Both the position numbers and the translations under genes were made by a program. Source: Bryobacterales bacterium (GTDB lineage: Bacteria; Acidobacteriota; Terriglobia; Bryobacterales; Bryobacteraceae). Taken from it: a DNA stretch of 64,000 bases. The notes beneath the pieces were generated by a model that saw only the letters and a program-made list of their open reading frames with translations, was not told where the DNA came from and did not search any database. The first letter of the stretch is position 1, and each line of letters starts with the position of its first letter. Shown piece after piece: positions 42,892 to 62,703 of this stretch. The stretch is taken from contig CAVQLV010000004.1 of the NCBI GenBank assembly GCA_963713415.1, positions 945,517-1,009,516 on the forward strand. Direction: 5' to 3'.

Positions 42892-44685
42892 GTGCCGAGA
42901 CCGAATCGTCTGAATTTGTGGCTCACAATTGCAATCGCGGTTGCCGCCTATGGCCAGACCCCGAAACGGATCGATGACAAGGCGCTGCGTAACGCATCCG
43001 AGAGCAAGGAGTGGTTGACGTACGGCGGCGATTACGCGGAAACCCACTATAGTCCGTTGAAGCAGATCGACGCCTCGAATGTCTCCCGGCTGGGGTTGGC
43101 ATGGTCTTGGGAGACCGAGTCACCCATGGGCGGCCGGGTGGAAGGAACGCCCTTGGAGTCGAACGGCGTGCTTTATGGGAGCCTGGCGTGGGATGTTATG
43201 TTCGCCGTGGATGCCCGCACGGGAAAAATGAAATGGCGCTGGGACCCGGAGATTGAGCGTAAACATATCTCGGAGATTTGTTGCGGTCCGGTGAATCGCG
43301 GAGTTGCCATTTATGACGGGAAGGTCTACGCCGGCTTACTGGACGGAAGGCTGGTGGCGCTGAATCAGGAAACCGGCAAACCGGTGTGGCAGGTTCAGAC
43401 CACCGATAATCCAGGGACGATTCTCACCTCAGCGGTGCGAGTCGTAAAGGGAAAAGTCATCGTGGGAACGAGCGGCGCTGAGCAGGCCGTGAGGGGCTAC
43501 TTCTCCGCGTACGACGCCGAAACCGGGGAAATGGCATGGCGATTCTATACTGTGCCGGGCGATCCTTCGAAACCCTTCGAACATCCTGAGCTTGCCATGG
43601 CGGCCAAGACCTGGACAGGCGAATGGTGGAAGATGGGCGGCGGGGGGACGGTGTGGGATTCGATGGCTTACGATCCCGATGCCGATATTCTCTACATCGG
43701 CACAGGCAATGGCGGACCGTGGGATCGCAATGTTCGGAGCCCGCTAGGCGGCGACAATTTGTTTCTGGGATCGGTAGTCGCGGTGAAGCCGGATACCGGC
43801 CGGATGGTCTGGTATTTCCAGGAAACACCGGGCGACACGTGGGATTACACGTCCACGCAGCCCATGATCCTGGCCGATCTTGCGATCAATGGCAAGCTGC
43901 GCAAGGTTTTGCTGCACGCGCCCAAGAATGGCTTCTTCTATGTCCTGGACCGGATCACCGGTGCGTTCATCTCCGGCGACAAGTACGTCAAGCGCGTCAC
44001 CTGGGCCACAGGCCTGGACAAGAACGGTCGGCCTATCGAAGCCGATGGAGCGCGCTGGGGCACCGATCCGGTGCTACTCTCGCCCGGTCCTGGGGGCGCT
44101 CACAATTGGCAGCCGATGTCGTTCAATCCGCTCACTGGATTGGTTTATATTCCAGGGCAGGAGAGCAGCGGAACCTATACGCCCGATCCGAATTTCGTCT
44201 TCCGTTACGGCTACCCCAACCTGGCTATGGCGATGGGATTGAATGGGCCGCGCACTCCCGACGGCCGGCTCACCCCCGGCGCTGCACCGCCAACACCGCG
44301 GAAACCGGCCAAGGAACCCGCTGGCGCCGAGAATCAGCCGAAAGCCACGGGCGGTTTCTTGCTGGCGTGGGACCCGGTGATTCGGAAAGAGCGCTGGCGC
44401 ATCCCAGGAGCCGGAGGCTTTGGCGGTGGCGGGACGCTGGCAAGCGCCGGCAATCTGGTGTTTCACGGAGCTACCGCGTACAACGCCGAGACCGGTGAGA
44501 AACTCTGGGATGGCAATATCGGCGGGCTTCCGGTGACACCAATTGCCTACATGCTGGACGGCAAGCAGTATGTGACGCTGATCGGCCGCGCATATCCGGG
44601 CAATCGGCTATTTGCTTTTGTGTTGGACGGCAACGCGCCCATGCCGCCGTTACCTTCCACAGATTCCTCTTCGGCGCAGAAGTGA
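42892..44685 (+). CDS. PQQ-dependent alcohol (methanol/ethanol family) dehydrogenase, Ca-type
   Basis: WLTYGGDYAETHYSPL, the vicinal disulfide ICCGPVNRG, W-repeat propeller motifs and GDTWDYTST. The residue two positions after the catalytic Asp is Thr, not the Asp I recall for lanthanide-dependent enzymes. Confidence 0.9.
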   Translation: MPRPNRLNLWLTIAIAVAAYGQTPKRIDDKALRNASESKEWLTYGGDYAETHYSPLKQIDASNVSRLGLAWSWETESPMGGRVEGTPLESNGVLYGSLAWDVMFAVDARTGKMKWRWDPEIERKHISEICCGPVNRGVAIYDGKVYAGLLDGRLVALNQETGKPVWQVQTTDNPGTILTSAVRVVKGKVIVGTSGAEQAVRGYFSAYDAETGEMAWRFYTVPGDPSKPFEHPELAMAAKTWTGEWWKMGGGGTVWDSMAYDPDADILYIGTGNGGPWDRNVRSPLGGDNLFLGSVVAVKPDTGRMVWYFQETPGDTWDYTSTQPMILADLAINGKLRKVLLHAPKNGFFYVLDRITGAFISGDKYVKRVTWATGLDKNGRPIEADGARWGTDPVLLSPGPGGAHNWQPMSFNPLTGLVYIPGQESSGTYTPDPNFVFRYGYPNLAMAMGLNGPRTPDGRLTPGAAPPTPRKPAKEPAGAENQPKATGGFLLAWDPVIRKERWRIPGAGGFGGGGTLASAGNLVFHGATAYNAETGEKLWDGNIGGLPVTPIAYMLDGKQYVTLIGRAYPGNRLFAFVLDGNAPMPPLPSTDSSSAQK

Positions 44686-45009
44686 GCTTGGCAAACTTCG
44701 GTTAAAGTAACAACGGATGCGTTTTGCCGCCGCGATACCAGCTTGCCTCACCTTGCTGCAGGCATTCTTTGTAGCGCCGTTTTAGCACGTGCATCCCGGC
44801 TCAGACCACGATCAGGGCGCGACGATCCACGCGCATTTCTACCACCTTGCGGCGCCGGGTAAGCAGCACACGGGCCCCGGGCTGGAAAATGCCGACGAGG
44901 ACAATCACGATGCGGTGTGGTCAGTCGATTTTTTACGCTTGTCCAGGCTGCCCCACTGACGCTTTCTGCTCCCGCCCACGCCCGCCTGCCTGCGCAGGCC
45001 TGCCGCGAT

Positions 45010-45719
45010 GTCAAAGGCGGATCGTCGTCATGTCGAACGTTCGGGGCCGCGACTTGGGAAGCTTCGTCGCTGAGGTCCGCTCGAAGATCGATCGCGACCT
45101 CGCACTGCCCACCGGCTACTTCATTGAATATGGCGAACAGTTCGAGAACCAGGAGCGCGCCACGCGGCGCTTGCTTTCGATCGTGCCGCTGGCAATCGCC
45201 CTGATCTTCGTACTCCTTTACCTGACGTTTGCCTCAGCCAGGCTTGCGTTGCTGGTGATAGCGAATTTGCCCTTTGCCTTGGTGGGCGGAATCGCGGCGC
45301 TTTCGATACGGGGGATGAACCTCAACCTTTCGGCATCCGTCGGGTTCAGCGCTCTCTTCGGAGTCGCGATGCTGAATGGCGTGCTGCTGGTGAGCTCCAT
45401 ACGTCAGCTCCATCAAACCGGCTCATCGTTCCACGACGCAGTGATTATGGGCGCCCAGCGGCGATTGCGTCCGGTTTTGATGACCGCCTGTGTCGCCAGC
45501 TTCGGATTCATTCCCATGGCACTGGCTACATCGACGGGAGCTGAAGTTCAGCGGCCCTTGGCGAGCGTGGTCATCGGCGGACTGGCGAGTTCCACGATGC
45601 TGACTCTGTTCCTGTTGCCGGTGCCGTTGACTGGCTTGGTTCGGGAAAATCTGCTCGGTCGCCTGTTGAGGGAGGGCTCGTCAATCCGGTTGTTACCGCT
45701 CATTAAGACCCGTCAGTAA
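45010..45719 (+). pseudogene. 3' fragment (last ~230 codons) of a second CzcA-family RND permease
   Basis: RRIVVMSNVRGRDLGSFVAEVRSKI...LSIVPLAIALIFVLLYLTF...MLNGVLLVSSIRQL...RLRPVLMTACVASFGFIPMALATSTGAEVQRPLASVVIGGL aligns to the C-terminal fifth of czcA (29959..33078). Nothing RND-like lies upstream of about 45010. Confidence 0.75.
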
Positions 45720-46964: not shown

Positions 46965-47807
46965 TCAGCCGAGTCCTGGTCCGAGGCGGCGCGGTCTGAT
47001 CTTGGGCCTGCGGGCCCTCTGCCGGTTCATTCGGACGAAGGCTATTTCCGATTCGGCGATCATTGCATCTGCCAGCATTTCCCGCCGGCGAGGGCGGCGC
47101 CGCAGGGTTGGTAGGATCGATCCGTTCCACCACATCAGCACCCCAGTGACGTAGAGAGTCGCCGGCGCTAGACCAGCGAGAATCCAAAGGACGCGGGTGA
47201 AGTTGCCTTCAAAGGTGCCGAAATGAAGCGGGTAGAGATCACGCGTGAAACGAATGGGCCACGAAAGGTCACGGTGGTAGTTGATGCGGGTCACTTGCCC
47301 GGTGTACTGGTCGATGTACACCAAATTATCTCCCGCCCTTCTCCAGTCTCCGGGCAGCATCCGTCGAAGTGAATAGGGCGCATCCTTCTGTTGGGGGAAA
47401 GTGAATAGTGTGGTTTCTCCAACTGGCAACGCGTGCACGGCAGTCGCATAGATCGCGTCCAGATTGATTCGGCGGCTTGCGCCGACTCGCGTCCGCGGCG
47501 CCAGGAGCACGGACGGTTTCCGCGCCGCCCAGCCGGCGATGGCCTCATAAGTCTTCGGGAAAGCAAAGTAGGCTCCGGTCACTGCGACGAACATCAGCAG
47601 CAGGCTCGCGAAGAACCCCGTAAGCCGGTGCAGGTCGTAATTCTTGCGCCGCCACCGCGCCCGCGACTCAAAGCGAAGGGCGGACCTCCAGTGCTTTACG
47701 CCGGGCCACCATACCACCAGCCCGGTGGATGCCAGAACCACCAGCAGAAGGGCGCCAATTCCATTTACAGTCTCGCCCCTTGGACGCAGTGGATCTACGA
47801 TCTTCAT
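46965..47807 (-). CDS. PepSY-associated TM-helix protein, probably 5'-truncated
   Basis: GALLLVVLASTGLVVWWPG...RKNYDLHRLTGFFASLLLMFVAVTGAYFAF...YPLHFGTFEGNFTRVLWILAGLAPATLYVTGVLMWW. The N-terminal TM1 + PepSY part expected for this family is absent. Only 63 nt separate it from the divergent oxidase gene. Confidence 0.65.
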   Translation of the reverse strand: MKIVDPLRPRGETVNGIGALLLVVLASTGLVVWWPGVKHWRSALRFESRARWRRKNYDLHRLTGFFASLLLMFVAVTGAYFAFPKTYEAIAGWAARKPSVLLAPRTRVGASRRINLDAIYATAVHALPVGETTLFTFPQQKDAPYSLRRMLPGDWRRAGDNLVYIDQYTGQVTRINYHRDLSWPIRFTRDLYPLHFGTFEGNFTRVLWILAGLAPATLYVTGVLMWWNGSILPTLRRRPRRREMLADAMIAESEIAFVRMNRQRARRPKIRPRRLGPGLG

Positions 47808-47870
47808 GTGCGTTTGCTATCGGGACCAAGCCGCGAACGAAGTTTCGAACATCCGATACGATGGGATCGA

Positions 47871-49161
47871 ATGCACCGCAGGCGTTTCCTGGCTTCGCTC
47901 GGCGTCGCCGCAGCTCAAAAAGCTATCTTCAGCTCGGAAAAGCCCGACTACACTCTGCGCATAGCGCCTCCTAGCATTGAGATCGCCCCTGGCACGGTGG
48001 TCAAAACGATCGCATACAACGGCTCGGCGCCGGGGCCACTCTTACGGATGGCGGAAGGCAAACCCGTCACCACTCAAGTGTTCAACGACACGCATGAGGC
48101 CGAGTTGGTTCACTGGCACGGATTGCACATCCCGTCGGCAGTCGATGGGTCCAAGGAGGAGGGGACGCCCATGCTTCCTCCGCACGGCTCGGCGGTCTAC
48201 ACATTCACGCCGAAATCGAGCGGCACGCGCTGGTATCACTCGCATGTCCGCGCCGGACAAATCTCAAACGCGCCACTTACACCGGACCGTTCGGGTTTAT
48301 TTTTATAAAGCCTGTGAGCGAGCCTGGTGAGTACGATCAGGAGGTCTTTATCGCGCTTAAAGAGTAGGAGCCTTACCTGTCGAGTGCGGGCGGGGTGAGG
48401 AACTCGCTGGAAGTGGCCTACAACTTTTCGATCAACGGCCAGGCCCTGGGCCACGGAGATCCAATCCGTGTCAAAGCGGGGCAGCGCGTACTTTTCCGCA
48501 TCCTCAATGCCAGCGCAGCCGTGACCCGGCGCATCGCTGCCGCAGCCGTTCCGCAGCAAGTGGGAGCGCTGGGACTCGGGCCGGCCGAGCGTATCGATGC
48601 CATCGTTGAAATGAATCAGCCGGGTGTCTGGATTCTAGGTGCCACTGATGACCACGACCGGGAACATGGGATGGGCACCGTCATCGAGTACTCCGGGCGA
48701 GGTGGCCAACCGCGCTGGACACCTCCGAGCACGGAGCGCTGGGATTACAGAATCTTCGGAAATCCGGGCCACGAAGAGCGGTCATCGTCACCTTTTGAGC
48801 GCATCCTCCGGTCTTCGAGAAGAAGTTTGCCGGCCATCATTGGGTGGATAAGTGGACCATCAACGGCAAAGAATTCCCGAAGACTGATCCAATTCGAGTT
48901 CGGGCCAACCAGGGATATCGCCTGGTATTCGATAATCGCAGTAACGAGGCGCATCCACTGCACCTGCACCGGCACACTTTCGAGCTGACGAAGGTCTAAG
49001 GGAGCGACACTGCCGGAGTATTCAAGGACGTGGTGGTTATTCAGCCCAATTCCAAGCTGGAAGTGAGCTTGACCGCAAATAATCCCGGACTTACCCTGTT
49101 CCACTATCAGCAAATGCATATGGATTACGACTTCACGGCGCTGATGAAATACGCGGGTTAG
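47871..49161 (+). pseudogene. Multicopper oxidase with frameshifts, two nonsense codons and loss of the type-1 Cu cysteine
   Basis: Tat leader MHRRRFLASLG. HWHGLH and WYHSH are present. There is a frameshift near 48255. KE-TAG-EPY at 48365-48367 sits where KEWEPY is expected (a TGG to TAG change). HPLHLHRHTFELTKV is followed by TAA at 48997-48999. The final motif reads LFHYQQMHMDYDF instead of FHCHxxxHMDxGM. Confidence 0.85.
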
Positions 49162-49986
49162 CGGCAAAGCTGGTTCGATCGCTTTGCTCCGCCAAACCGG
49201 CGGCCAAGGATCATTTTGATCAGCAAATGATCGGTCCCGCGAGTGACGCCGACTCCAACGCCAAAGTTGAACTCCCATTTTGGCGATAGGTTCAAATCTA
49301 TTGCCGGCACGATTTGCTGCTCCTGCTGGTACAGGGGATCAAAGTTTCCCACCGGGCCCAAACTGCCGTAGTACTCCAACCCGGCATTGATCTTCGGCGT
49401 GAAATCGTAACCAGTCTTGAAGTCCGGCGCGAATACCACGCCTTGACTCACGCCCGGCCCGTGGAAGCTCCGATCGAAAACGGGATTGAAAGCCAGATAC
49501 CAGCGCCCGACCTGCTTGTCGATGATTGGCCGGACCTCCAGCGTCCAGGTATCGGGAGAACGACGTAACGTTGATAGCCAAACTCGAGAGAAAGGCTCAC
49601 TCCCACCGGCCATTGCCAGGATTCGGGTATGCGCGCCCTCGCCTGATATGATCTCCCACCCACTGCCAGCCGCCTTGATTGGGATTGACACCGGTGAAGA
49701 TGTAAAGTCCGGTCTCAAACCAACCGGTGATGCCCCTGGTGATTTCGACCGTCTCATGCAACTGGTGCTCGGTCCCGTAGACGCCATCCACTACGCCCTT
49801 GCTGCCCTCAACGGCGAAGTTGCTATGCAACTCGATCATGGTTGTGCCTGGGTCTTGAGTTGCCGAAGGATAGACCTGGAGTTCGTAATTTCCCCGGCCG
49901 AGCGCGCACGCCGCGGAGGCGAGAAAAAGAAGTGCGCCAAGCGCCGCATTGTCGCTGAATCTACCGGGCCACAACGTTTTGACCAT
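49158..49986 (-). pseudogene. Outer-membrane beta-barrel protein (paralog of 53600..54422), 2 frameshifts
   Basis: ORFs 49597..50040, 49448..49663 and 49158..49787 tile one protein: signal peptide, NYELQVYPSAT..., ...RIPESWQWPVGVSLSLEFGYQR..., ...LEYYGSLGPVGNFDPLYQQEQQIVPAIDLNLSPKWEFNFGVGVGVTRGTDHLLIKMILGRRF. Confidence 0.65.
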
Positions 49987-50368
49987 CGACGACACCGGAG
50001 AGAAGAATCTTGCCGTCCGTGGATAAAATGCTGGTTGCATTTCCGTGAGTTAAGCCATCCTTCGCACGGCAGCCTTTGACGATGATCTGCTCGCCGATCT
50101 TGAGCGTTGTCCGGGTCCATCCGGATTTCATCAACGTGTTCGGGCTGCCTGCTTCGAAATCCCAGTTCTCTACCTTGCCGGAGTCTTCCTTCACATCAAT
50201 GTAGAAATGGACATGCGGGTTCATCCAGTCGACGCGGGTGACGGTACCGTGTAGCAAGACGGGCCTTGAAGCGTCGTAGTCTGCTGCGAACGAATGATGC
50301 GCTCGTACAGGAGAGGCAACGATACAAAGTACGCAGGAAAGGATCAGTAAGTAGGGAAGGTTTTCCAA
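49961..50368 (-). CDS. Small periplasmic protein (DUF6152-like), predicted mature N-terminus His-His
   Basis: Signal peptide ...IVASPVRA, then HHSFAADYDASRPVLLHGTVTRVDWMNPHVHFYIDVKEDSGKVENWDFEAGSPNTLMKSGW. Paralog at 58377..58781. Confidence 0.8.
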   Translation of the reverse strand: MENLPYLLILSCVLCIVASPVRAHHSFAADYDASRPVLLHGTVTRVDWMNPHVHFYIDVKEDSGKVENWDFEAGSPNTLMKSGWTRTTLKIGEQIIVKGCRAKDGLTHGNATSILSTDGKILLSGVVDGQNVVAR

Positions 50369-50384: not shown

Positions 50385-50915
50385 TCAGCGCTTCGTGACG
50401 GTTTGAGGGGCCTTCCCCTCGTGCGGCTCGTAGTATCCGATCAGCCGGCCGCAAATCGGTATACTCACCCACAGTATCAGCGAAAGGACGGCGGCAGCTT
50501 TCGCACGTGTGGGTATCGCTGGGGCCTTGTCCAACTCCTCGGGGTGATCGTACACGATGGGTTTAAAAATTAGCGCATGAACTCCAACTAGCAGCAGCAG
50601 CGTCATCTTTGTCCAGAAATAAGGATTGGGATAGTACGTCGGAGCCTCCGAGCCGGCCATGAGAAGCCCGCAAGTGACTATAATCACAAAGCCAATGCGC
50701 TTATAGGGCCGCAGACCTCCTACAACTTCCGCTATGCTCTGATCGCGCAAGGCTAAGCCGAGCAGGCGCAGATCGGTCATCAAGATCATGCCGCCGAACA
50801 CGGCAATGCAACTCACATGCGTGGCCATGATGATGGGATAGACCCACGGAGTCTGCTCAATGCCGGTCATCAAGCTGGTGCTCTGGATCGATTGAAAGAT
50901 GGAATAAAGCGACAT
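50385..50915 (-). CDS. Polytopic membrane protein, type B (B1) of a repeated A/B pair
   Basis: YPIIMATHVSCIAVFGGMILMTDLRLLGLAL...YYPNPYFWTKM...LVGVHALIF...RAKAAAVLSLILW...GRLIGYYEP. Paralogs at 59600..60133 and 60558..61187. Confidence 0.8.
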   Translation of the reverse strand: MSLYSIFQSIQSTSLMTGIEQTPWVYPIIMATHVSCIAVFGGMILMTDLRLLGLALRDQSIAEVVGGLRPYKRIGFVIIVTCGLLMAGSEAPTYYPNPYFWTKMTLLLLVGVHALIFKPIVYDHPEELDKAPAIPTRAKAAAVLSLILWVSIPICGRLIGYYEPHEGKAPQTVTKR

Positions 50916-50921
50916 TGGATA

Positions 50922-51398
50922 TTACGCCAGAAGTCCGGTGAAGAGCCCACCCGTCACCACTGAGACCCACAGCAATACCGAGATGGCTCCCACCACGACG
51001 CCCACTCCAGGGGGCGGGGACGACGAAGCCACCTTGTAGTGGACGGTGTAGTTATAGAGGATCGCGAGGAGCAGCGCCGCTGCCTTGAACCGGAACCAGG
51101 GGCTGAAGTAATACATGCGCGGATCCGTCAAAAACAGCCCCATCCCTGCAAGCACCGTGACCGACAACCCGATCAACGTGTACGCCCAAGTTTCGTGCAG
51201 CAGTTTGGCGGGAGTTGTTCTTGGAAACGCCAAGCCAAGAAGACGCAGGTCTACGATCATAATCGTCCCTATAGCCACGGCGAAAAAGACGATGTGAAAA
51301 CACTCCGCCACCGCGAAGCCCCATTCGGTGTTGTTCAGCAGGTCGGCTATTGCATTCGATTGGAGAAAAGCCGGGGAAGCTACAAATAGATGCATCAC
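50922..51398 (-). CDS. Polytopic membrane protein, type A (A1) of a repeated A/B pair
   Basis: NNTEWGFAVAECFHIVFFAVAIGTIMIVDLRLLGLAF...FLTDPRMYY...YNYTVHYKV...LLWVSVVTGGLF. Paralogs at 60149..60601 and 61208..61663. The ATGA overlaps the upstream gene. Confidence 0.8.
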   Translation of the reverse strand: MMHLFVASPAFLQSNAIADLLNNTEWGFAVAECFHIVFFAVAIGTIMIVDLRLLGLAFPRTTPAKLLHETWAYTLIGLSVTVLAGMGLFLTDPRMYYFSPWFRFKAAALLLAILYNYTVHYKVASSSPPPGVGVVVGAISVLLWVSVVTGGLFTGLLA

Positions 51399-52033
51399 TT
51401 CGCGTCTTGGATCTCCAGATCCGTCTTCTCGTCGCCCGCCATCATCTTCGCGTTGTCGTAGAATCCCGCGGTCACCAGATGAATCTCGACCTCCTTCTTA
51501 CCTTTGTTTTCCCAGAACCAGCCGTGGATGCCAGTGGAAGGCGCGGTGAATGAGCCGCCGGAATGATCTGAGCCGCCCTGATCATTAAGTTCGTAGCTCT
51601 CGAAATAGTCCTTGTTCGGCTTGTTGTCCGGCTCACCGTGGAATTCGAACGCTACTGGCCCCGTGGCTTTCCAGGAGTAAAGCATGCCGGCGGCTTTCTG
51701 CATATGATACTTGACTTCGACGCCTTCGCCGGGCATCAGTGAAAGATCCTCGCTGTCGGTTTTGAAAATTCCGGGCTGCGCGGTGTAAATGCCCGCCGGC
51801 GCGGCGACGGGCCGTGCGCCAACGGGCTTCGATTCCGCCGTCGATTCGGTGGCTTTCGCAAGATCGGTCAAATGCAGTAGCTTGCCTGTCTTCAGCGGAT
51901 CGATCCCATATTCGGCGGGCAGCACGGCCGTCAATAGAATCACGAGCGCGACTGCTAGCGCGATCCCGGTGGCTTTCGCGATTGCTTGCTTCGACGGTGC
52001 CTCCGCCCGCTGAATGTTTTCCTGTTTAACCAT
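51395..52033 (-). CDS. Membrane-anchored periplasmic protein, function unknown
   Basis: ATG at 52033 with AAGGA 6 nt upstream. TM anchor GIALAVALVILLTAVL. Beta-rich domain with FEFHGEPDN and GIHGWFWEN. Confidence 0.7.
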   Translation of the reverse strand: MVKQENIQRAEAPSKQAIAKATGIALAVALVILLTAVLPAEYGIDPLKTGKLLHLTDLAKATESTAESKPVGARPVAAPAGIYTAQPGIFKTDSEDLSLMPGEGVEVKYHMQKAAGMLYSWKATGPVAFEFHGEPDNKPNKDYFESYELNDQGGSDHSGGSFTAPSTGIHGWFWENKGKKEVEIHLVTAGFYDNAKMMAGDEKTDLEIQDAK

Positions 52034-52040
52034 ATAATCC

Positions 52041-52748
52041 TTACGCGGCGGCAAAATAGCCAGTGATCTGATAACCCACCAGTATGAATCCTACGGTCAT
52101 CAGCACCGCGTTCGTCGCAAACGCGTCCCGCAAGAAACTGCCGCGTGTGCGCCAGACGCTCAACACGATCAATATGGCGGTCAACGCCAGCACCTGGCCC
52201 ACTTCCACGCCGACATTAAAGCTTACGATGTTCGTAATCAAGCCGTTCTTTGAGAGAGCCAACTCCTGCAGTTTGGTGGCGAGTCCAAATCCATGAAACA
52301 GGCCGAAAATGAGCACCGCCACTTTCGCATTCGGCTCGAACCCCAGAAACCGCCGAAAGCCATCCATGTTGTCGAACGCTTTGTAGACCACCGAAAAGCC
52401 GATGATCGCATCAATGACGTAGGGGTTGGCATGAGCTCCTCCGAGGACTCCACCCAGCAGCGTGATGCTGTGACCCAGCGTGAACAGACTGACATACTGA
52501 ACGATCTCTTTGAGCCGGTATAAGAAAAAGATGACTCCCACCAGGAAGGCGATGTGGTCATACCCGGTCACCATGTGCTTCGCGCCCAAGTAGACGAAAG
52601 CAGGGATTGCGGCCCCCTGATTCGATTCGACAAAAGACGCATCGCGTTTCGAGACGTTGTGCGCCATGGCGGCGCCGGGAAACACGAGCATCGCGAGGAT
52701 GAAGAGAATCGCCGCAGCCGCGGCCAAGCGGCGAGATAGGGCGGTCAT
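52041..52748 (-). CDS. hupE: HupE/UreJ-family membrane protein
   Basis: Signal peptide ...GAAMA, then HNVS..., GYDHIAFLVGVIFFL, FTLGHSITLL, FGLFHGFGLA, NVGVEVGQ. The start at 52748 overlaps the upstream stop (ATGA). Confidence 0.8.
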   Translation of the reverse strand: MTALSRRLAAAAAILFILAMLVFPGAAMAHNVSKRDASFVESNQGAAIPAFVYLGAKHMVTGYDHIAFLVGVIFFLYRLKEIVQYVSLFTLGHSITLLGGVLGGAHANPYVIDAIIGFSVVYKAFDNMDGFRRFLGFEPNAKVAVLIFGLFHGFGLATKLQELALSKNGLITNIVSFNVGVEVGQVLALTAILIVLSVWRTRGSFLRDAFATNAVLMTVGFILVGYQITGYFAAA

Positions 52749-53296
52749 TTGCACCGATCCGCCAGGTCCGGCTTTTCGCGCCATTTATCGTGGCAGTTGG
52801 AGCAAGCCGTGCTCAAGTCTCCCGCCGCCGTTACGATGTCGTCCTTCTTGGACTGTGCGGCCTTGTAGCTCTCAAGGCTCGCGGCCCGCAGACCCTGGAC
52901 GAATTTAGGCCAATCCGGGTTGTTGATCGGAACTGGAAGCCCGTTACCGCATTTGCGCCCGGGAAGAATCAGAAGATTGGCGGCTTCCGAAAGAGCTCTT
53001 GCACTGTTCTCCACAGCCGTCCAGCCGCCGTAGGTACTGGCAAGAGGATTCGGCGACAGCGAGGGGTCCTTCGCCGGCGGCACCTTGGCGGGATCGTCTT
53101 CTTGAGCGAAAAAGATCACATTAGAGTTGGGGAAGAGGATACCGCGCATGAGCTGGCGCAAGTCTGCAACGACCTCCGGTTTCATGGCCGCCGATTTGGG
53201 AGCCTTGGCCGCGTTGGAGCGGGCTGGCCCCGGCGATTGCGCCTGGCAGACTCCCAAGATGGTTAGAGAGAAGAAAGCTGTTACTATGCGAGACAT
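52745..53296 (-). CDS. Class II (cytochrome c'-like) c-type cytochrome
   Basis: Signal peptide. Single CSNCHDKWR heme motif about 15 residues from the C-terminus, preceded by long helical segments. This is the class II cytochrome c layout. Confidence 0.65.
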   Translation of the reverse strand: MSRIVTAFFSLTILGVCQAQSPGPARSNAAKAPKSAAMKPEVVADLRQLMRGILFPNSNVIFFAQEDDPAKVPPAKDPSLSPNPLASTYGGWTAVENSARALSEAANLLILPGRKCGNGLPVPINNPDWPKFVQGLRAASLESYKAAQSKKDDIVTAAGDLSTACSNCHDKWREKPDLADRCK

Positions 53297-54437: not shown

Positions 54438-54731
54438 TTAGGAGCGGGGAGGATGATCGAGACGCGGCGCAGGCTTTTCGGTCAGCTGGGGGACAGGGGC
54501 CGGGGTGACGCGCTCGATGAGAGACGCGACAAAGCTATGCGTGCGCGCCGGAAACCCGGTATGGAGCGAGCAATAGGCGCAATCGTGGCAGGAACAATCG
54601 GAACCGCTTGGCGTCGTAGACCCAGCGTAGTGGTCGTGATAGTCCTCGGCCATGCACACGGCCATCTGGGTGCAGATGGCCATGAGCACAAGTAGCGCCA
54701 GCCAGCGAATGAGGCTCCTCCTCCGAGGCAT
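54438..54731 (-). CDS. Small membrane-anchored Cys/His-rich protein
   Basis: 97 aa. TM helix IRWLALLVLMAICTQMAV, then EDYHDHYAGSTTPSGSDCSCHDCAYCSLH. It lies directly downstream of the TBDR. Confidence 0.6.
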   Translation of the reverse strand: MPRRRSLIRWLALLVLMAICTQMAVCMAEDYHDHYAGSTTPSGSDCSCHDCAYCSLHTGFPARTHSFVASLIERVTPAPVPQLTEKPAPRLDHPPRS

Positions 54732-54757: not shown

Positions 54758-57700
54758 TCAGAAGCGCAGCTTCACGGCAGCCTGCATTAAACGAGGCGCG
54801 GCCGCGCTGACCACGTGTCCGAAATCGGGATCGGAGTCCACGCCCTCCACGGATTGCGGTCCATAAAACTGCGCATGGTTGAAGACATTGAAGGCTTCCA
54901 TCCGGATATCCAGGGTCATCGATTCTCTAAGCCGGATGATCTTGCTGAGCTGCACATCGAAGTTTTCGATGCCGGGCCCTTGGAAGCTGCGCCGGCTGGA
55001 ATTGCCCAATACTCCCAAGGGCTCCACCTCGAAAGCGCTGGTATTGAATACCGGCTTGCCGTTGCGGGGATTCTCGTTTAGGTTGAGCGGGCCGCCCAAG
55101 TACTCGGGCGTGTCTAACAAATAGTTATTCACGCCGTTGCCGAGGGTTCCCAAGAGTGAGTTGTCGGAGTTGTCAATGAGCGTCACGGGCAGCCCAGAGG
55201 AAAAACGGCTGGTGCCGGACAAGCTCCATCCATCGGTCAGGCGATTCCGCCCAAAGAAGCGCTCGAATGGCAGATTGTACGTGTACGTGATGACGACATT
55301 CTGAGGGATGTTCCAGGCCGAAATCGCGCGAGTCAATCCCAGGTTGAAGGGGTTAGTGTCCTCGCCGAGGTACGATGCATCATCGATGGACTTGGACCAG
55401 GTATAGCCTACCAGGAGCGTGGAGCGTGAGCCGATGGTCGCGCGAAGGGTAATTTCCAGCGAGTTATAGTTGGAATTTCCGATGGTCTTTTGCAGCGTGA
55501 CCGATCCGTAATCCGGTCCAAGGCCGACACGCGTGCCCTGGTACGTCTGTCCGGATGCGGATGTATAGCTGGCGTCCTCACCGTAGGGACCGCAAGTCAG
55601 TGTGCCCGGAGCTACCTGGCTCGGTTGGCTCAGGCTCAGGCATAGTGCCGCGTTTCCGTTATTGGCTGGCTGTAACACCAGGATGTGATGGCCCTGGTTC
55701 CCTGCATAGCTAACCGTGAGCAAAGTGTTCTGGCCGAACTGCCGTTGAACGGAAAACATGTAATTTTCCGTGTAGGGCACGGTGTCTTTGGAATAGAATT
55801 CGGGCGCCGCGCTGATCGGCGTAACCGCGGCCCAATCAAATCCGGTATAGGGGTCCTTTTGAGAGACGTTGTTGGGAGGAAAATGAAATGGATAGGGATC
55901 GGTTTGCACCACTCCGTCGCCCGAATCGATGAAGGGCTGGGCGAACTCGGGAGGAGCGGGGCTCAAGTAGTTGTATCCCCACGGTGGCACGCCGTACATG
56001 ATGCCGGCGTCGATGCCCTGGAAGGCGGTGTAGAAGATTCCGTAGCTGGCCCGGATGCTGCTCTTGCCCGATTCGCCAAAAATCGCCTTCAAAAATCTAT
56101 TTCCAAAATTTGGAGAATAGGCTAGTCCGATCCTGGGCGCGAAGGCGTGATTGTCTGGAGGCGAGAGAGTGGGAGGAATGCCAGGGTCGCCGGGCACCAG
56201 AAGGTCAGGCAATGCGTTGGGGAAAAGAACCGACTGCCGGCCGGGAACGATGGTCTGAAGGTTGTTGTATTTGTCCGACCAGGGCTCGATCCGCTCCCAC
56301 CGCAACCCGTAATTCACCGTCAGGTTCGGCCGCGCTTTCCAGCTATCCTCAACGAACGCGGCGTAATAGCGATTTCGCAGATAGAAATGCTGGCCGGTGG
56401 TCTGGGTGAAATTGCTCGGCAAGCCCAGCAGATAATCGGCGAACGGCGATCCGGTCTCGGACCCAAGGAAGCTGAACGTTCCGTTAAAGGTGCCGTTCGG
56501 ACTTTCATTGACCTGGTTGTTATGAAATTGAGCGCCAAACTTAATCGTGTGCGCGCCCCACACCTTTGAGATGGCATCGCTCAGATAAAGCGTATTGTTC
56601 CATTGATCCGCGTTGGTAATAGGAACGCCCATGACGAAGTCTGGGAAGACCAGGTTCTCCACGCCTTCAAACTGCGGCGCTTGCACCACGAGGCCCCCGT
56701 TTTGAGGTCCTTGGACGAATCCCTGCGAGGCTATGGATACTCCGGTTCCTCCGTGAGGTTGTCCAATGAAATTCACGTTCCGCAGGAAGCCGGCATGAGC
56801 TTCGTTGACCATGGTCGGGCTTAGGATCTTGGTGTCGCCAATGCTGATCTCCTGCGCCTGTCCGGGGGTCAGGGCGTCAAAGCCAGGAACGCTTGCACCG
56901 CCCTGTCCGCCCGGATATGGATTGTCCACTATGTAGTTGTCGACGAAATAGTAGCCGAAGATATTGCCGGCGCGCGTGTTGGCGTCGATGCGGGCGCCAG
57001 CCTTGTCGTCCCGGTCTGTTTCAGGGAAGGCCGACGTAGAAAAAAGGTTGGAACCGATGTTCGCAGTGGGAATGTATTTCAGCAGGTTATGCGCGACCGG
57101 CGACCAAACCGATTGGGGAATGATTGCTCCGGGGAATACGCATTGAGAGCTGGACCCGCAGCCCGGTGTATAAAAGGGTTCGCCCACGTTCACGTTATAG
57201 CCGAGCTTGGATGCCAATTGGCCCGCCTGGTAGGCCGCAGGCACGGTCCCGGTCAACAGGCTGGCCGAATCGCTAAAGTTGCCGGCGCGCTCCTGATTCG
57301 ACATAACCGTGGTTACCGGCGATGTGATGCCTTGCGTGGTCTTGGTGTGCTGATAGTCCAGGAAAAAGAAAAGCTTGTTTTTTAGGATCGGCCCGCCGAT
57401 GGTACCGCCGGGCTGATTCTGCTGGTAGAGCCCTCGCTTCGCGTCAAAGAAGTTCTTGGCATCCAGGTCGGTGTTCCTAAGGAACTCGAAAGCGCTGCCA
57501 TGGAATTGGTTGCTCCCGGACCGGGTAATGACGTTGACCATTCCGCCGTTGTAATTGCCGTACTCCGTGTCGAAGTTGTTAGTTAGGACCCGGAACTCCT
57601 CGATCGAATCCAGGTTCGGAATCACGGACGTTCCGCCGTTCATCCCTTCCTGGACGTCGATCGCATTCACCATGAAGCCATTGGCAGATTCGCGTTGTCC

Positions 57701-58291
57701 ATCGATGGAAATGTTACCGGGATTCAAGGCGCCGGATGGATTGATGGTGCCAGTGACGCCCGCCATGATGATGGACGTTGGGGTCGAGGTTGTGACAGGG
57801 GTGACGCCTGGTTGGATAGCAAGAAGGTCGGTATAACTACGACCGTTCAGAGGAATCGCCTGAATCTGCTGCTCTGATACCACCTCGCCGAGGTGGGTCG
57901 CCACCGTATCAGGCTGGGTTTGCAAGTTCTCTTCCGAGGCGGACACCGTGACCGTCTCGGTTTGCTCACCGACCGATAATTCTGCGTCTAGCGTTACGGC
58001 GGCGTCTGTGTCGATGGCAATATTGGTCTTCTTCTGTGGCTTGAAGCCGGTGGCGTCGATGGTCAGGTCGTACTTGCCGACCGGAAGTGCGGGAAAAGAA
58101 TAGGATCCGCGGGCGTCTGAGATGGTCGTAAACTGTGCCTTGGTGTCCACGTTCACTAAGGTGAGCTTGCCGCCGGAGATCACGGCGCCAGTGGGGTCTT
58201 TCAGCACGCCGGAGAGGCTGCCAGCGGCGAACCCCCACAATACGGAGGCACAAAAGAGTGACAACGCGATCTGCACCAGACGTTCGATCAT
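54758..58291 (-). CDS. Large TonB-dependent receptor with a CarboxypepD_reg N-domain (1177 aa), intact
   Basis: Start trimmed to the ATG at 58291 (MIERLVQIALSLFCASVLWGFAAGSLSGVLKDPTGAVISGGKLTLVN...). Plug and barrel motifs. C-terminus ...LMQAAVKLRF*. Confidence 0.9.
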   Translation of the reverse strand: MIERLVQIALSLFCASVLWGFAAGSLSGVLKDPTGAVISGGKLTLVNVDTKAQFTTISDARGSYSFPALPVGKYDLTIDATGFKPQKKTNIAIDTDAAVTLDAELSVGEQTETVTVSASEENLQTQPDTVATHLGEVVSEQQIQAIPLNGRSYTDLLAIQPGVTPVTTSTPTSIIMAGVTGTINPSGALNPGNISIDGQRESANGFMVNAIDVQEGMNGGTSVIPNLDSIEEFRVLTNNFDTEYGNYNGGMVNVITRSGSNQFHGSAFEFLRNTDLDAKNFFDAKRGLYQQNQPGGTIGGPILKNKLFFFLDYQHTKTTQGITSPVTTVMSNQERAGNFSDSASLLTGTVPAAYQAGQLASKLGYNVNVGEPFYTPGCGSSSQCVFPGAIIPQSVWSPVAHNLLKYIPTANIGSNLFSTSAFPETDRDDKAGARIDANTRAGNIFGYYFVDNYIVDNPYPGGQGGASVPGFDALTPGQAQEISIGDTKILSPTMVNEAHAGFLRNVNFIGQPHGGTGVSIASQGFVQGPQNGGLVVQAPQFEGVENLVFPDFVMGVPITNADQWNNTLYLSDAISKVWGAHTIKFGAQFHNNQVNESPNGTFNGTFSFLGSETGSPFADYLLGLPSNFTQTTGQHFYLRNRYYAAFVEDSWKARPNLTVNYGLRWERIEPWSDKYNNLQTIVPGRQSVLFPNALPDLLVPGDPGIPPTLSPPDNHAFAPRIGLAYSPNFGNRFLKAIFGESGKSSIRASYGIFYTAFQGIDAGIMYGVPPWGYNYLSPAPPEFAQPFIDSGDGVVQTDPYPFHFPPNNVSQKDPYTGFDWAAVTPISAAPEFYSKDTVPYTENYMFSVQRQFGQNTLLTVSYAGNQGHHILVLQPANNGNAALCLSLSQPSQVAPGTLTCGPYGEDASYTSASGQTYQGTRVGLGPDYGSVTLQKTIGNSNYNSLEITLRATIGSRSTLLVGYTWSKSIDDASYLGEDTNPFNLGLTRAISAWNIPQNVVITYTYNLPFERFFGRNRLTDGWSLSGTSRFSSGLPVTLIDNSDNSLLGTLGNGVNNYLLDTPEYLGGPLNLNENPRNGKPVFNTSAFEVEPLGVLGNSSRRSFQGPGIENFDVQLSKIIRLRESMTLDIRMEAFNVFNHAQFYGPQSVEGVDSDPDFGHVVSAAAPRLMQAAVKLRF

Positions 58292-58376
58292 TCTAGTACG
58301 CTCATCATTTGTAAAATCCTTTGGCGTTTTGCGCCAATTTCTAAGCAAGACCGCGAGCCCACTGCGATTGTGTGAC

Positions 58377-58781
58377 TTAGTGCCCAGGGGTTGACTCAGG
58401 GGCGATGCCATCCAATACCTTGTGCCCGTTCGCCAGAATTACTTTCCTGGCGGTTGCAACGTTCGCCCCATCGCGCGCCGGGAAGGCTACGACCGTGACC
58501 CGGTCGCCGACCTTCAGCGTGTCGCGCAGCCAGCCCATCCGGGCCAAGGTATTCGGGCCCGCTCCCTCAAAGGCCCAATTTGTAACTTTCTGACGGGCGT
58601 CCTTCACGTCCACATAAAAGTAGATATGCGGGTTGCTCCAATCCACCCGCGTAATTACACCGGAGTAGGTAATCTGCCGATTCACATCGAACTCAGCCGA
58701 AACGGAATGGTGAGCAAAGATGGGGGCCGCTGCTACCAGCAACAGCCCCGAGGGGAAGAGAATCGCTAACTTATGTTTCAT
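58377..58781 (-). CDS. Small periplasmic protein (DUF6152-like), predicted mature N-terminus His-His
   Basis: ATG at 58781. Signal peptide ...AAAPIFA, then HHSVSAEFDVNRQITYSGVITRVDWSNPHIYFYVDVKDARQKVTNWAFEGAGPNTLARMGW. Confidence 0.8.
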   Translation of the reverse strand: MKHKLAILFPSGLLLVAAAPIFAHHSVSAEFDVNRQITYSGVITRVDWSNPHIYFYVDVKDARQKVTNWAFEGAGPNTLARMGWLRDTLKVGDRVTVVAFPARDGANVATARKVILANGHKVLDGIAPESTPGH

Positions 58782-58883
58782 CTGGCACAAACCTCGTGAA
58801 GTCTGCAGAGCGAGGCTACCACGCGGGCGGCGCAAATTAGACGAATCGAAGGTCAACTTTTGGTCATTGACGCTCGAAACGTG

Positions 58884-58910
58884 GTCACTGACCCGTGCAA
58901 ATCATTTGCA
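58884..58910. promoter_or_regulatory. Operator candidates upstream of the DUF6152-TBDR operon: palindrome half-site + 7-1-7 Fur-family-like box
   Basis: GTCACTGACC (58884-58893) equals the left half of the 20-bp palindrome. TGCAAAT-C-ATTTGCA (58896-58910) is a perfect 7-1-7 inverted repeat, 115 bp upstream of the ATG at 58781. Confidence 0.45.
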
Positions 58911-59599
58911 TCAAGGGAGATAGCGCAGCGAGTCCACGGGGGCGTGCGGCAAGGGATGAACGATCCAAGTTTCGGTTTTAGCTTGCGTTCACGTCGTCAC
59001 CTCGGCCGCAGGAATGATGGGTGCGAAACCTGCGCTTGCTTCTAACCCTTCGTCACTGAACGGCAAACGACCCGTTGAAGAGTAAGGTCTTAAGGTTGCC
59101 CGCGCTCCTGGTGCGAGTGAACGACACCTCCGATTCAGCCCTGTACATCGACCTGAAAACCGTGCGCCTGGTGGAAGCGTACGGACGGCGGTCTCGCATC
59201 AACCGGTTCCCGCTGGGGCGTAGGCACTTGTCTAAGCATCAATTCAGTGATTCTTGGCTTCGAGCTACAAAGGGCGGTCAAGTGGCTGTGACGTGCTTCA
59301 TGGGTACCCAAAGCAATCCGCGCCAACAGATCGCGCTTTCGCACGGCGGCGGGACCAGGTTTACCAAGCCGATAGTGTTGAACACCGGCCAAGCGTTCGG
59401 CTATACCTCGATGGCGCTGAAGCAGGATGGCGCGAAGGCCCAGGTACGACAAGTGAGCTCCCAGGGAGTCGCTGGGACGGTTGCAGAAGTTGCCAAAGGA
59501 GGCTTTTGGCAGCCCGGCGACTCTTTGATCGCTTCCGGCAGCGCCAAGCACATCGAGACAGCCAGTCTCGGCGTCAAGCAGCGAGCGCTGTTGCGGTCG

Positions 59600-60148: not shown

Positions 60149-60601
60149 TTACGCGAACGCGATGAATAGACCACCGAATACGACGCTGATCCATAGCGCC
60201 AAAGAGATGATGGCGGTTGCGACCCGCACCGGCTTGGTCGCGGTGTCCGACTTGGCGATCTTCCAATGAATCGTGAAATTAAAGATGAGCGCGATTGCGA
60301 GCGCGTACATCTTGAAGACGAAAGACGGATTGTTAAGGTACATCCGCACATCCGACAGAAAGAGAATGGGGCCAGACAGGAGCACGACCGCGAGCCCAAT
60401 AATGGTCCAGGGCGCCGTGTCGCGCAAAACCTCCGAGGGTTTGGAATGCTGAATACCGAAGCCCAGCAGCTTGTAATCAACTGCGGCGATCATCCCGATC
60501 GACCAGGCGAAAGCCGCTATGTGAAAGCATTCAGCGATTGGAAAAACCCATTCTGAACTATTCAGCGCGTCCGCTACGGATTGTATTTGCAGAAGCAACA
60601 T
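60149..60601 (-). CDS. Polytopic membrane protein, type A (A2)
   Basis: NSSEWVFPIAECFHIAAFAWSIGMIAAVDYKLLGFGI...FLSDVRMYL...FNFTIHWKI...LALWISVVFGGLF. Confidence 0.8.
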   Translation of the reverse strand: MLLLQIQSVADALNSSEWVFPIAECFHIAAFAWSIGMIAAVDYKLLGFGIQHSKPSEVLRDTAPWTIIGLAVVLLSGPILFLSDVRMYLNNPSFVFKMYALAIALIFNFTIHWKIAKSDTATKPVRVATAIISLALWISVVFGGLFIAFA

Positions 60602-61187
60602 CTTGGTGGTCCTGTCCTTTCACTGTGTGTCTGTTCACCGAGCGCGCCAGCATCGCCCAGCTGGCTCCATGGACTTCCGCATGGATCTTGTCGAGCGGTG
60701 GCTCGATATAGCCGATTCCCCGCCCACAGCAGGCCACCGCAGTCCAAAGGAGGAGGGACAGAGTGGCCGCTACCTTGGCACGCGATGGCGCGGTTGAAAG
60801 ACGGTCGAGCTTGGCGGGATCGGCATAAACGCTCCGGTAGAAAACTACAGCATGCACGATCAGCAAGCCAAAGAGAATCAGCTTGGTTCGAAAAAACGCG
60901 TTGTAGTAGTACTCTTCGGCTTTCGAGCCGAACAGTAGAAATCCGCAGGTAGCGGTGAGCAGCAATCCCCAGCGCTTCGGTACGCGGAACTGGTTGACGA
61001 CGTCGGCGATAGATCTTTTCCGCATAGCCCAGCCGAGAAGCCGCATATCCGTCATCAGGATCATCCCGCCAAAAAAGGCTATCCCCACCATGTGCAGCGA
61101 CATGACGATCGGATAGACGTCGGCTGAGCCGCGGAGCGCAGTAAAAAAGCTGGTGAACTGAAGCCATTGAACCAATGAGAGCAGCAT
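60558..61187 (-). CDS. Polytopic membrane protein, type B (B3) with an extended C-tail
   Basis: YPIVMSLHMVGIAFFGGMILMTDMRLLGWAM...IVHAVVF...RAKVAATLSLLLW...GRGIGYIEP. The 3' end overlaps A2 by 44 nt. Confidence 0.75.
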   Translation of the reverse strand: MLLSLVQWLQFTSFFTALRGSADVYPIVMSLHMVGIAFFGGMILMTDMRLLGWAMRKRSIADVVNQFRVPKRWGLLLTATCGFLLFGSKAEEYYYNAFFRTKLILFGLLIVHAVVFYRSVYADPAKLDRLSTAPSRAKVAATLSLLLWTAVACCGRGIGYIEPPLDKIHAEVHGASWAMLARSVNRHTVKGQDHQDVASANTIRSGRAE

Positions 61188-61207: not shown

Positions 61208-61663
61208 TCAGATTCCGACACTCAAGCCCGGATAGATGAAGCCGATGAAAATACCGCCAAAAATGACGCCCGCCCAGAGAATAAGAGAGATGCAGGCAAC
61301 CGCCTTCCCGTTATGAGGCGGCGACTCCGATACCAAAGCTCGCCGATGAATGGTGTAATGAAAAACCACGGCCGACACAAAGACAGCCATCTTGATAAGG
61401 AAAGCCCAGTTGAGATAATAGCTGTCCGGGTCCGAGGAGAATAGCAAGAGACCGGAGAACAGCATCAGCACCAAGCCGCTGAGCGTCCACAGCCAGGTAT
61501 CCTTGGCGAGCTCGGCAGGCGATTCGCGCGTCCCGGCAACGCCGAGGAGTGAAAAATCCACGATGGCGATGGTCCCGATCGAAATCGCGAATCCGACGAT
61601 ATGGAAGCACTCCAGGATTGGGAAGACCAGTTCGGATGAGTTTAGCGGATTAGTAATGAACAC
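61208..61663 (-). CDS. Polytopic membrane protein, type A (A3)
   Basis: NSSELVFPILECFHIVGFAISIGTIAIVDFSLLGVAG...FSSDPDSYY...FHYTIHRRA...LILWAGVIFGGIF. Confidence 0.8.
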   Translation of the reverse strand: MFITNPLNSSELVFPILECFHIVGFAISIGTIAIVDFSLLGVAGTRESPAELAKDTWLWTLSGLVLMLFSGLLLFSSDPDSYYLNWAFLIKMAVFVSAVVFHYTIHRRALVSESPPHNGKAVACISLILWAGVIFGGIFIGFIYPGLSVGI

Positions 61664-61801: not shown

Positions 61802-62261
61802 CGCATATCCTAAACGGCTTCCGTACCACTGGCCACAAAGCTCTTCAAGCCATTCAATCTCTCGTGCTCCGACCACGCCGCGTTCGCTGCTTGGCAAGTA
61901 CCAGGTTCACAGGAACGCGCTCGACGGCCTGAAACTAGGTACCGAGCTTGCCTTTCTCGGACAGATCAAGCAAGCCCTCGGATTGTGTGCGTCAGTTATC
62001 CGGATGTGATCGAGGAGCGACGAATGTCGTGGTGGTGTAAGGGCGCGGTCCAGGAATCTGTTTGACGGCCCTCTATTTTGATAAAGCCTCCGGACTCCTC
62101 GTTCGGGAAATCCGCTTAGGCCGTGCGCTGATCGCCACAGTGTCGATGGCTTCAATGATGGGTGTTATCCTCCAGCGTGGTGAATGAGAGCCATGCGGTG
62201 ATCGCATTCCAGCCGGCCTGGGGTAAAAGGCGGCAATGCGCACTGCGGAGCCGCAACGCCA

Positions 62262-62640
62262 ACCATACGCCAGTCTCATTGGTTGTTCCAGGCTTTCGAT
62301 GCAATCCCCACAATCGGTATTGTTTGCGTGGGGGGGACCATCGTAGATCTCCGGCTTCTAGTTTCACCTTACGGAGACTTCGGGTGTCGGAAGTCAGGTC
62401 GCGATTGCGCCACTGATTCGGTGGAGCTTTTAACTGGATTGCTCCTGTTCTCGTCCGAGGCCATGCAGATGTATGACAATCCGGCATTGCAATTGTGTTT
62501 CACGGGATCATCTAGCAGGATGTCTCCAACTGGGACGAGGATCCCACGGCTCCTCCTGATGCCGGACTCGCGGATTTGCTATCGCTTGTATTTGGATCGC
62601 AATCATTGGGGCGGGACGTGCAATTGCCTGCCAGGCCATT
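62262..62640 (+). pseudogene. Decayed fourth copy of the type-A membrane protein, on the opposite strand
   Basis: Fragments in three frames: SLVVPGFRC, then FQAFDAIPTIGIVCVGGTIVDLRLLV...LLTGLLLFSSEAMQMYDNPA, then IAIVFHGII...ADLLSLVFGS. These parallel ELVFPILECFH / IGTIAIVDFSLLG / LFSSDPDSYY / FHYTIH / ISLILW of A3. Confidence 0.55.
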
Positions 62641-62703
62641 CCTATGGCGACTCGGAAGATCCGGTCACGATTAGCCGTGCGGTATAAAGTTTCCATACCA
62701 GGA

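Follow-up and report, generated by a model that had tools for sequence, protein, structure and literature searches.

The stretch of DNA analysed here, hereafter the window, is 64,000 nucleotides (nt) long, comes from a Bryobacterales acidobacterium, and carries three type A and three type B genes for small membrane proteins, all on the minus strand and in the order A-B-A-B ... A-B. Read 5' to 3' on that strand, A1, B1, A2 and B2 are followed after a 740-nt gap by genes for a DUF6152 protein, a receptor, a DUF2946 protein and a 253-amino-acid (aa) open reading frame (ORF), and then by a c'-like cytochrome, a HupE_UreJ_2 protein, a 219-aa protein, A3, B3 and a second DUF6152 protein (Table 1). 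From the cytochrome gene to the DUF6152 gene of the A3-B3 block, neighbouring genes overlap or lie no more than 16 nt apart; A3 and B3 are separated by 6 nt and share a reading frame, and the start of A3 overlaps the stop of the 219-aa gene upstream. The closest genomes were metagenome-assembled genomes of Bryobacterales, with B3 identities of up to 93%, and a lookup of the exact B3 sequence returned no record. Our analysis indicates that the A and B proteins are almost certainly paired subunits of one complex, which most likely handles copper or electrons on the outer side of the cell membrane.

All six proteins scored above the gathering cut-off (27 bits) of the DUF6644 family (PF20349), at 31.8-61.9 bits, and PF20349 was likewise matched by all 134 members of our conservation sample, made up of 128 representatives clustered at 50% identity and the six window proteins. 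DUF6644 members typically measure about 150-180 aa; the D-L-R-L-L-G motif, a His in the first transmembrane helix (TM1) and four transmembrane helices are further family features found in the window proteins, with hydropathy giving four helices in each of the six, and an AlphaFold2 (AF2) model of B3 (pLDDT 88.5) contained four transmembrane helices plus N-terminal amphipathic helices. Since both types exceed the PF20349 gathering score and align with each other by BLASTP at E=3e-15 (28% identity), A and B are homologous, and the initial annotation of this DNA, which derived the two from one ancestor, is on sequence grounds correct in this respect. The motifs it quoted for the A and B copies (ECFHI, YPI[IV]M..H, D.RLLG and GY.EP) were also present, with one slip, A3 reading N-N-T-E rather than N(S/T)(S/T)E. 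The family is large, with 6324 cluster representatives at E<=1e-3 in an exhaustive profile search, two-domain proteins among them. DUF6644 is catalogued in Pfam; a literature search on DUF6644 and DUF6152 found no publication, and the paired or fused architecture and the partner set of DUF6644 appear to be undescribed in the literature searched.

Each DUF6644 ORF of 75 non-redundant loci was assigned to type A or B with hidden Markov models (HMMs) built from 114 A and 119 B homologues. All typed loci belonged to Acidobacteriota, the narrower alignment having served as query, so that the pairing statistics carry a lineage bias. The 95 runs comprised 57 AB, 26 ABAB and one ABABAB, the remainder being five lone B genes cut by contig ends and six internal runs that deviated. 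The strict alternation claimed for the window was borne out well beyond it, with (AB)n order in 80 of the 87 internal runs. The A and B genes are spaced by gaps of 6-20 nt or overlap. More remote members supplied a pair (L091), a B-cytochrome c gene preceded by an A gene (L085) and a singleton (L090).

Pairing is carried further by natural gene fusions. In the protein P0243 an A and a B part precede a C-terminal domain that ends in CESCH, two DUF6644 domains are joined in a different order from P0243 in P0241, P0244 and P0265, and P0360 combines one DUF6644 domain with a CxxCH domain. With P0243 as query we recovered, in more than 100 clusters (90% identity), full-length A-B-cytochrome fusions 411-455 aa long, and also A-B fusions that lack the cytochrome and measure about 310 aa; the fusions look independent and show at least two domain orders. 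An AF2 model of a natural fusion, computed from a paired alignment of 114 natural fusions, reached pLDDT 85.5 and pTM 0.81. Its C-terminal domain resembled cytochromes c' in Foldseek (prob 0.99, TM-score 0.52-0.67), C406, C409 and H410 were invariant among the fusions, and PF01322 is precomputed for several of them. The cytochrome encoded in the window has its CSNCH at residues 165-169 of 183, near the C-terminus as in class II cytochromes c, and matched the fusion C-terminus around CxxCH by BLASTP (E=0.003); it corresponds, as a protein of its own, to the domain that is fused to A-B elsewhere. The functional tie of the A-B module to a class II cytochrome c is one that we regard as firm.

Fixed gene order, tight spacing and natural fusions together constitute Rosetta-stone evidence for a 1:1 A-B complex, and the heteromer read into the alternation by the initial annotation is strongly backed by the adjacency of A to B across genomes and by the more than 100 fusions. 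A fused c-type cytochrome requires a periplasmic C-terminus, and the Lys and Arg residues that cluster in loops 1 and 3 agree, by the positive-inside rule, with a topology in which both termini are outside. A 1:1 heteromer of eight helices with periplasmic N- and C-termini is thus strongly supported.

Two loci hold both forms: in L080 (8001-11000) and L079 (8001-9293) a fused A-B-cytochrome c gene lies a few hundred bases from a separate DUF6152-A-B cluster, the fusion gene of L080 coming after a DUF1800-DUF1501 pair. Fused and split forms that coexist in some genomes may not be redundant.

Across the 134 members (B3 numbering), the TM1 His was kept in 133 and the Lys that opens TM3 in 132, with further conservation at G42 (97%), G83 (99%), F100 (95%), G53 (95%), D48 (89%), R50 (86%), W149 (90%) and G156 (92%). 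Two invariant intramembrane His per subunit had been proposed as the hallmark of a bis-His cofactor site. The TM1 His fits that description; the TM3 His was present in 19% of the family at the B-type position and 30% at the A-type position, was well conserved inside the close A and B subfamilies only (109 of 114 and 119 of 119), and was lost in the fusions. Indeed, in the 114 fusions the two TM1 His were the only conserved membrane His, and each half retained its TM3 Lys, so that a single His per subunit is conserved both family-wide and in fusions and the bis-His hallmark does not hold. The Glu described as invariant in A, three residues before the TM1 His (E-x-x-H), was kept within the A subfamily and occurred in 63% of the family as a whole. 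Subfamily-specific residues were found around the same positions: E32, C33, H35 and K105 of A3 are invariant within the A subfamily, and H33, C36, K103, H113 and R157 of B3 are conserved within the B subfamily. In the acidobacterial A subfamily the E, C and H of E-C-x-H were present in 114, 113 and 114 of 114 sequences, and the acidobacterial B subfamily reads M/L-x-x-H-x-x-C, with the Cys in 112 of 119. The topology places the invariant His and Lys, together with the extra Cys, Glu and Met, in the half of the membrane that faces the periplasm. We consider it firm that the module is split and pseudo-symmetric, that it has eight helices and that each half carries one invariant His-Lys site on the periplasmic side.

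To place DUF6644 among known families, the 134 members were scanned against Pfam at E<=1 and the window proteins at E<=0.1. Secondary, sub-threshold matches were to DUF2214 (71 of 134, best 1e-7), CopD (11, best 5e-6), UPF0093/HemJ (PF03653; 9, best 1e-3), SirB (5), DUF2269 (3) and the PpoB2 copper chaperone (2), several of which probably belong to the CopD-like clan of Pfam. DUF2214 (PF09980), the strongest of these, was matched at scores below its gathering cut-off of 34.1 and, as an uncharacterised membrane family, adds no mechanism. Neither the Pfam scans nor the PDB sequence and Foldseek searches backed the suggested kinship to cytochrome b561, MsrQ and PepSY_TM reductases: the six DUF6644 proteins of the window matched none of the three in Pfam at E<=0.1, nor were these among the 25 commonest families matched by the 134 relatives at E<=1. 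The A/B profile matched no PDB sequence at E<=10, and Foldseek with the B3 monomer gave nothing below E 0.7. PepSY_TM proteins do offer a parallel in context, being inner-membrane partners of TonB-dependent metal receptors in DUF2946-led copper operons, and one member of that family has been reported as a siderophore reductase (PMC9426467), but they have no sequence or fold relation to DUF6644 and the window has a separate PepSY_TM gene.

Among the closest known systems are the copper importers CopD, YebZ and PcoD, inner-membrane proteins built from four-helix bundles, with essential His close to the periplasm. Copper import by YebZ/CopD depends on two such His (H135 and H154 in YebZ), about 35% of CopDs are truncated four-helix forms with one His, and some CopDs carry cytochrome c domains (PMC11923076). 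The A-B unit has two invariant periplasm-proximal His, one per subunit. Searches of DUF6644 profiles with hmmsearch and hhalign, against Escherichia coli YebZ and against a small CopD alignment, were not significant; in most of these runs the top local alignment nevertheless set the TM1 His of DUF6644 against His154 of YebZ and the TM3 Lys against K229, with H-x-x-C-x-A-x-[WV]-F-G-G common to TM5 of YebZ and TM1 of the B type. As CopD works with periplasmic CopC/YobA, so DUF6644 adjoins a small secreted His-rich partner (DUF6152), and both are linked to heme-copper oxidases, CopD-type import being known to support these enzymes (PMC13344008). The differences are that the eight helices of DUF6644 are divided over two paralogous genes, that its partner is DUF6152 (OB-like, with an N-terminal His-His) and not CopC, and that its cytochrome is of class II (c'-like) and not a cbb3-type domain.

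Neighbour counts were made for the 83 AB and ABAB runs, 2.5 kb to either side. A CtaA/COX15-like gene (Pfam 41.9 bits) stood beside 27 of the 83, upstream of 10 of 26 ABAB runs and, for the 57 AB runs, downstream of 12 and upstream of 5. A DUF6152 gene lay up- or downstream of 26, and upstream of the AB runs we found the 219-aa protein 14 times, HupE 12 times and the c' cytochrome 10 times, the order around the cytochrome gene being the same in L001-L003. A TonB-type receptor was present in 40 of 78 loci, and in one locus (L004) an ABAB run directly follows COX2-COX1-CtaG-CtaA-like genes. The window itself provides a TonB-type receptor, PepSY_TM, a multicopper oxidase, COX2 and HupE as metal or redox neighbours.

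Several of these neighbours bear on copper. DUF2946/CruR proteins are copper-sensing leader peptides encoded by the first gene of copper-related operons (PMC9426467), and in the window the DUF2946 gene lies 76 nt upstream of the block formed by the 253-aa ORF (which matched no family), cytochrome c', HupE, the 219-aa protein, A3, B3 and DUF6152. This DUF2946 protein is acidobacterial, is encoded downstream of the receptor gene and ends in HPPRS rather than RAPP; the described family is mostly from Proteobacteria. Related TonB-dependent transporters supply copper to heme-copper oxidases (PMC12914433). The DUF6152 protein has a signal peptide and a predicted mature N-terminus of His-His-Ser, its HH and NPH motifs being at least 90% conserved in 47 orthologues. 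Such an N-terminus would suit a histidine-brace-type Cu(II) site like those of CopC and YcnI, and DUF6152 looks like an undescribed N-terminal-histidine (His-brace-like) metal-binding family; it recurs beside DUF6644 pairs even in the remote lineage L085. The 219-aa protein has a His-rich periplasmic domain, is translationally coupled to A3 through their start/stop overlap, and is likely to be a further subunit or partner. It has no Pfam or PDB relative, and PDB searches with it and with DUF6152 gave nothing useful.

Table 1. Features of the window, with coordinates, strand and the evidence for each assignment
Feature	Coordinates	Strand	Evidence
A1, type A DUF6644 subunit, 151 aa, four transmembrane helices (hydropathy), E-C-F-H in TM1	61208..61663	-	PF20349 36.4 bits; A-HMM 190 vs B-HMM 76
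B1, type B DUF6644 subunit, 209 aa, long C-terminal tail, 44-nt overlap with A2 start	60558..61187	-	PF20349 44.8 bits; B-HMM 237 vs A-HMM 68
A2, type A DUF6644 subunit, 150 aa	60149..60601	-	PF20349 38 bits; A-HMM 200
B2, type B DUF6644 subunit, 177 aa	59600..60133	-	PF20349 56.2 bits; B-HMM 294
A3, type A DUF6644 subunit, 158 aa (most orthologues 153 aa)	50922..51398	-	PF20349 31.8 bits; 225 homologues
B3, type B DUF6644 subunit, 176 aa	50385..50915	-	PF20349 61.9 bits; DUF2214 25.5 bits over 112 residues
DUF6152 secreted protein, 16 nt downstream of B3	49961..50368	-	PF19649 107.9 bits
Second DUF6152 protein by coordinate, probable start at the MKHKL Met, downstream of A1-B1-A2-B2, overlaps receptor gene start	58377..58856	-	PF19649 104.5 bits
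219-aa protein, one N-terminal transmembrane helix plus periplasmic domain, directly upstream of A3	51395..52054	-	No family match
HupE/UreJ_2 metal permease-like protein, H-x3-G-x-D-H motif	52041..52784	-	PF13795 179.7 bits
Secreted class II (c'/c556-like) cytochrome c, C-terminal CSNCH	52745..53296	-	PF01322 19.1 bits, below cut-off 26.5
DUF2946 (CruR-like) small exported Cys-rich protein	54438..54731	-	PF11162 24.8 bits vs cut-off 23.7
1217-aa outer-membrane beta-barrel with CarboxypepD_reg N-domain (TonB-dependent-receptor-like)	54758..58411	-	PF25183 604.7 bits, PF13620 68 bits, weak PF00593
Decayed seventh DUF6644 copy (pseudogene), just upstream of COX2	62260..62660	+	HMM matches over three reading frames
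COX2, divergent from A1	62794-63738		
PepSY_TM gene	46965-47807		

We tentatively favour a reading in which A-B is a split CopD-like, periplasm-facing copper relay or importer with a c-type cytochrome as its redox partner. Homology, pairing, fusions, topology and the conservation pattern are shown by the data; which metal is handled, which way it moves and how the cytochrome is coupled to it are inferred. The paralogous four-helix A and B would assemble 1:1 into a pseudo-symmetric eight-helix module of the inner membrane, a split relative of the CopD-type copper importers, to which each subunit would give one TM1 His and one TM3 Lys, the acidobacterial ones adding Cys plus Glu (A) or Met (B). 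A metal ion, probably copper, would be received at the periplasmic face and then relayed or imported, with the secreted His-His protein DUF6152 as the likely donor, in the role of CopC. The class II cytochrome c, fused in many relatives and separate here, would probably set the redox state of the metal, from Cu(II) to Cu(I), and the module would in the end supply cuproenzymes, for instance the neighbouring heme-copper oxidase. Electron transfer and metal relay had been offered initially as two possible functions; the fused or operon-encoded class II cytochrome c supports a link to electron transfer, and the genomic context supports metal relay somewhat better.

A number of observations count against the proposed copper relay. 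No window protein matched CopD (PF05425) at E<=0.1, and hhalign of DUF6644 against a four-sequence CopD alignment (YebZ, PcoD and two plasmid CopDs) gave E 0.2-0.6, which is not significant. The best Foldseek matches to the membrane part of the fusion model were instead cytochrome bd subunits (7ose_B and 5doq_B; prob 0.97-1.0, TM-score 0.40-0.54 over 290-400 columns), again not significant at E 0.056-0.5. CopC was found neither in the window operons nor in the sampled loci, its position being taken by DUF6152 in the runs counted above; DUF2946 accompanied the cluster in only 4 of 78 loci, and many fusions stand alone without metal-related neighbours. HupE in the A3-B3 operon could already be the permease, leaving A-B as a redox accessory. 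Finally, the His+Lys signature of DUF6644 is presumably shared with HemJ, a heme-b protein, so that the signature appears to be common to the copper and the heme branches of the superfamily.

The main rival is that A-B is itself a heme-b protein. Either the two TM1 His, one from each subunit, would sandwich a heme b where the subunits meet, close to the periplasm, in the manner of cytochrome b559, or every bundle would carry a heme of its own, as in CydA. Electrons would pass between membrane quinol and the periplasmic class II cytochrome c, and A-B might, for instance, stand in for a PepSY_TM protein as reductase in TonB-dependent metal uptake. We consider this less likely than the copper relay, for all that speaks in its favour. 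The fused or operon-encoded c-type cytochrome, with an invariant Met281 and CxxCH, suggests a low-spin electron carrier, a conserved Gly follows the TM1 His by nine residues, the Lys stands at the end of TM3 nearest the periplasm, where one would expect heme propionates, CtaA-like heme proteins are common neighbours, and HupE could be the actual permease. HemJ/PgdH2, a four-helix relative matched by 9 of the 134 members, is a dimeric b-type hemoprotein (PMC13564367). The top Foldseek matches were cytochrome bd subunits for the fusion (prob 1.0) and CcmC and the SpNOX membrane domain for the B monomer.

Every one of these structural matches, however, had E>0.05. The likeness to cytochrome bd consists of two side-by-side four-helix bundles in the membrane, whereas CydA and CydB have nine helices and no sequence similarity to DUF6644, and it is a likeness of fold and not of membership. 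HemJ (UPF0093, TIGR00701), a protoporphyrinogen dehydrogenase, shares a length of about 150-190 aa, four transmembrane helices and a His early in TM1, but it is a homo-oligomer, a tetrapyrrole-synthesis context is absent here, and the matches are weak: the best reached 1e-3, and A3 scored 12.8 bits (E 0.096) against TIGR00701, where the cut-off is 138. The single conserved His per subunit leaves no second conserved axial ligand inside a bundle, the conserved Cys, Met and Glu beside it resemble metal ligands more, and no quinol-site signature was identified. A related proposal, doubtful to a slightly greater degree, is that A-B and the class II cytochrome c form a new redox module, with a heterodimeric, b559-like heme-b (or copper) centre between the subunits wired to periplasmic heme c, acting as a cupric or metal-chelate reductase and gate of TonB-dependent copper acquisition in Acidobacteria. 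If this were true, the whole CopD/HemJ/DUF2214 superfamily would share one His+Lys cofactor site.

The association with respiratory genes raises another explanation, namely that A-B helps to assemble heme-copper oxidases or handles their cofactors, passing heme or copper with the CtaA-like protein, for example, and is neither a transporter nor a respiratory electron carrier. The ABAB run behind the oxidase operon of L004, the CtaA-like gene adjoining nearly a third of the runs (27/83) and the COX2 gene divergent from A1 in the window would all fit, but for most runs the 2.5 kb to either side contain no oxidase genes, the fusions stand alone, and the A3-B3 pair lies instead in an operon of metal-uptake type, and we judge this explanation improbable. 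Least probable is that A and B are tandem paralogues that work alone or as homodimers, their alternation being a record of duplication: singleton genes in remote lineages such as L090 indicate that one type can suffice, but the fixed A-then-B order of the internal runs in many genomes, the tight spacing or overlap, the many independent-looking fusions in at least two domain orders and the type-specific conserved residues of A and of B all argue otherwise.

These results turn DUF6644 into a defined object, an obligate A/B pair with natural cytochrome c fusions, a candidate active site on the periplasmic side, made up of a His and a Lys in each subunit, and a consistent set of partners in DUF6152 with its N-terminal His-His, HupE, a TonB-type receptor and CtaA/COX genes. 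How bacteria import copper, and the redox step involved, is poorly understood, and a CopD-like module that is split and brings its own cytochrome would be a new architecture. The family could also help to decide whether the site of the CopD/HemJ superfamily binds metal, heme or both, and it would bear on how the abundant Acidobacteria of soils supply copper to their respiratory oxidases.

Regulatory searches of the window returned little. An Rfam search of 45-64 kb detected neither a riboswitch nor any other RNA, evidence against an uptake locus under cobalamin-riboswitch control, and a promoter and terminator scan did not rise above shuffled expectation. The spacer between B2 and DUF6152 (58856-59600) extends over 740 nt without a convincing ORF, an Rfam match or a terminator signal above chance; the same spacer measures about 160-560 nt in related loci.

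Several genes near the cluster show signs of decay. In the seventh DUF6644 copy the invariant TM1 His is replaced by Pro, and its position near COX2 is where related genomes keep intact DUF6644 genes beside the oxidase operon. The multicopper oxidase (47900-49000, plus strand) is spread over at least two frames, with Cu-oxidase_3 in ORF 47433-48308 and Cu-oxidase in ORF 48395-48988, and is either a frameshifted pseudogene or the product of a sequencing error. A role in lanthanide uptake, prompted by a nearby pyrroloquinoline quinone (PQQ) dehydrogenase gene (42892-44685), was dropped, as the enzyme reads W-D-Y-T where lanthanide-dependent enzymes carry D-Y-D. Beside the same dehydrogenase gene, ORF 44847-45719 (plus strand) matches positions 811-1015 alone of the 1021 in the AcrB/RND profile and looks like the remnant of a truncated efflux-pump gene.

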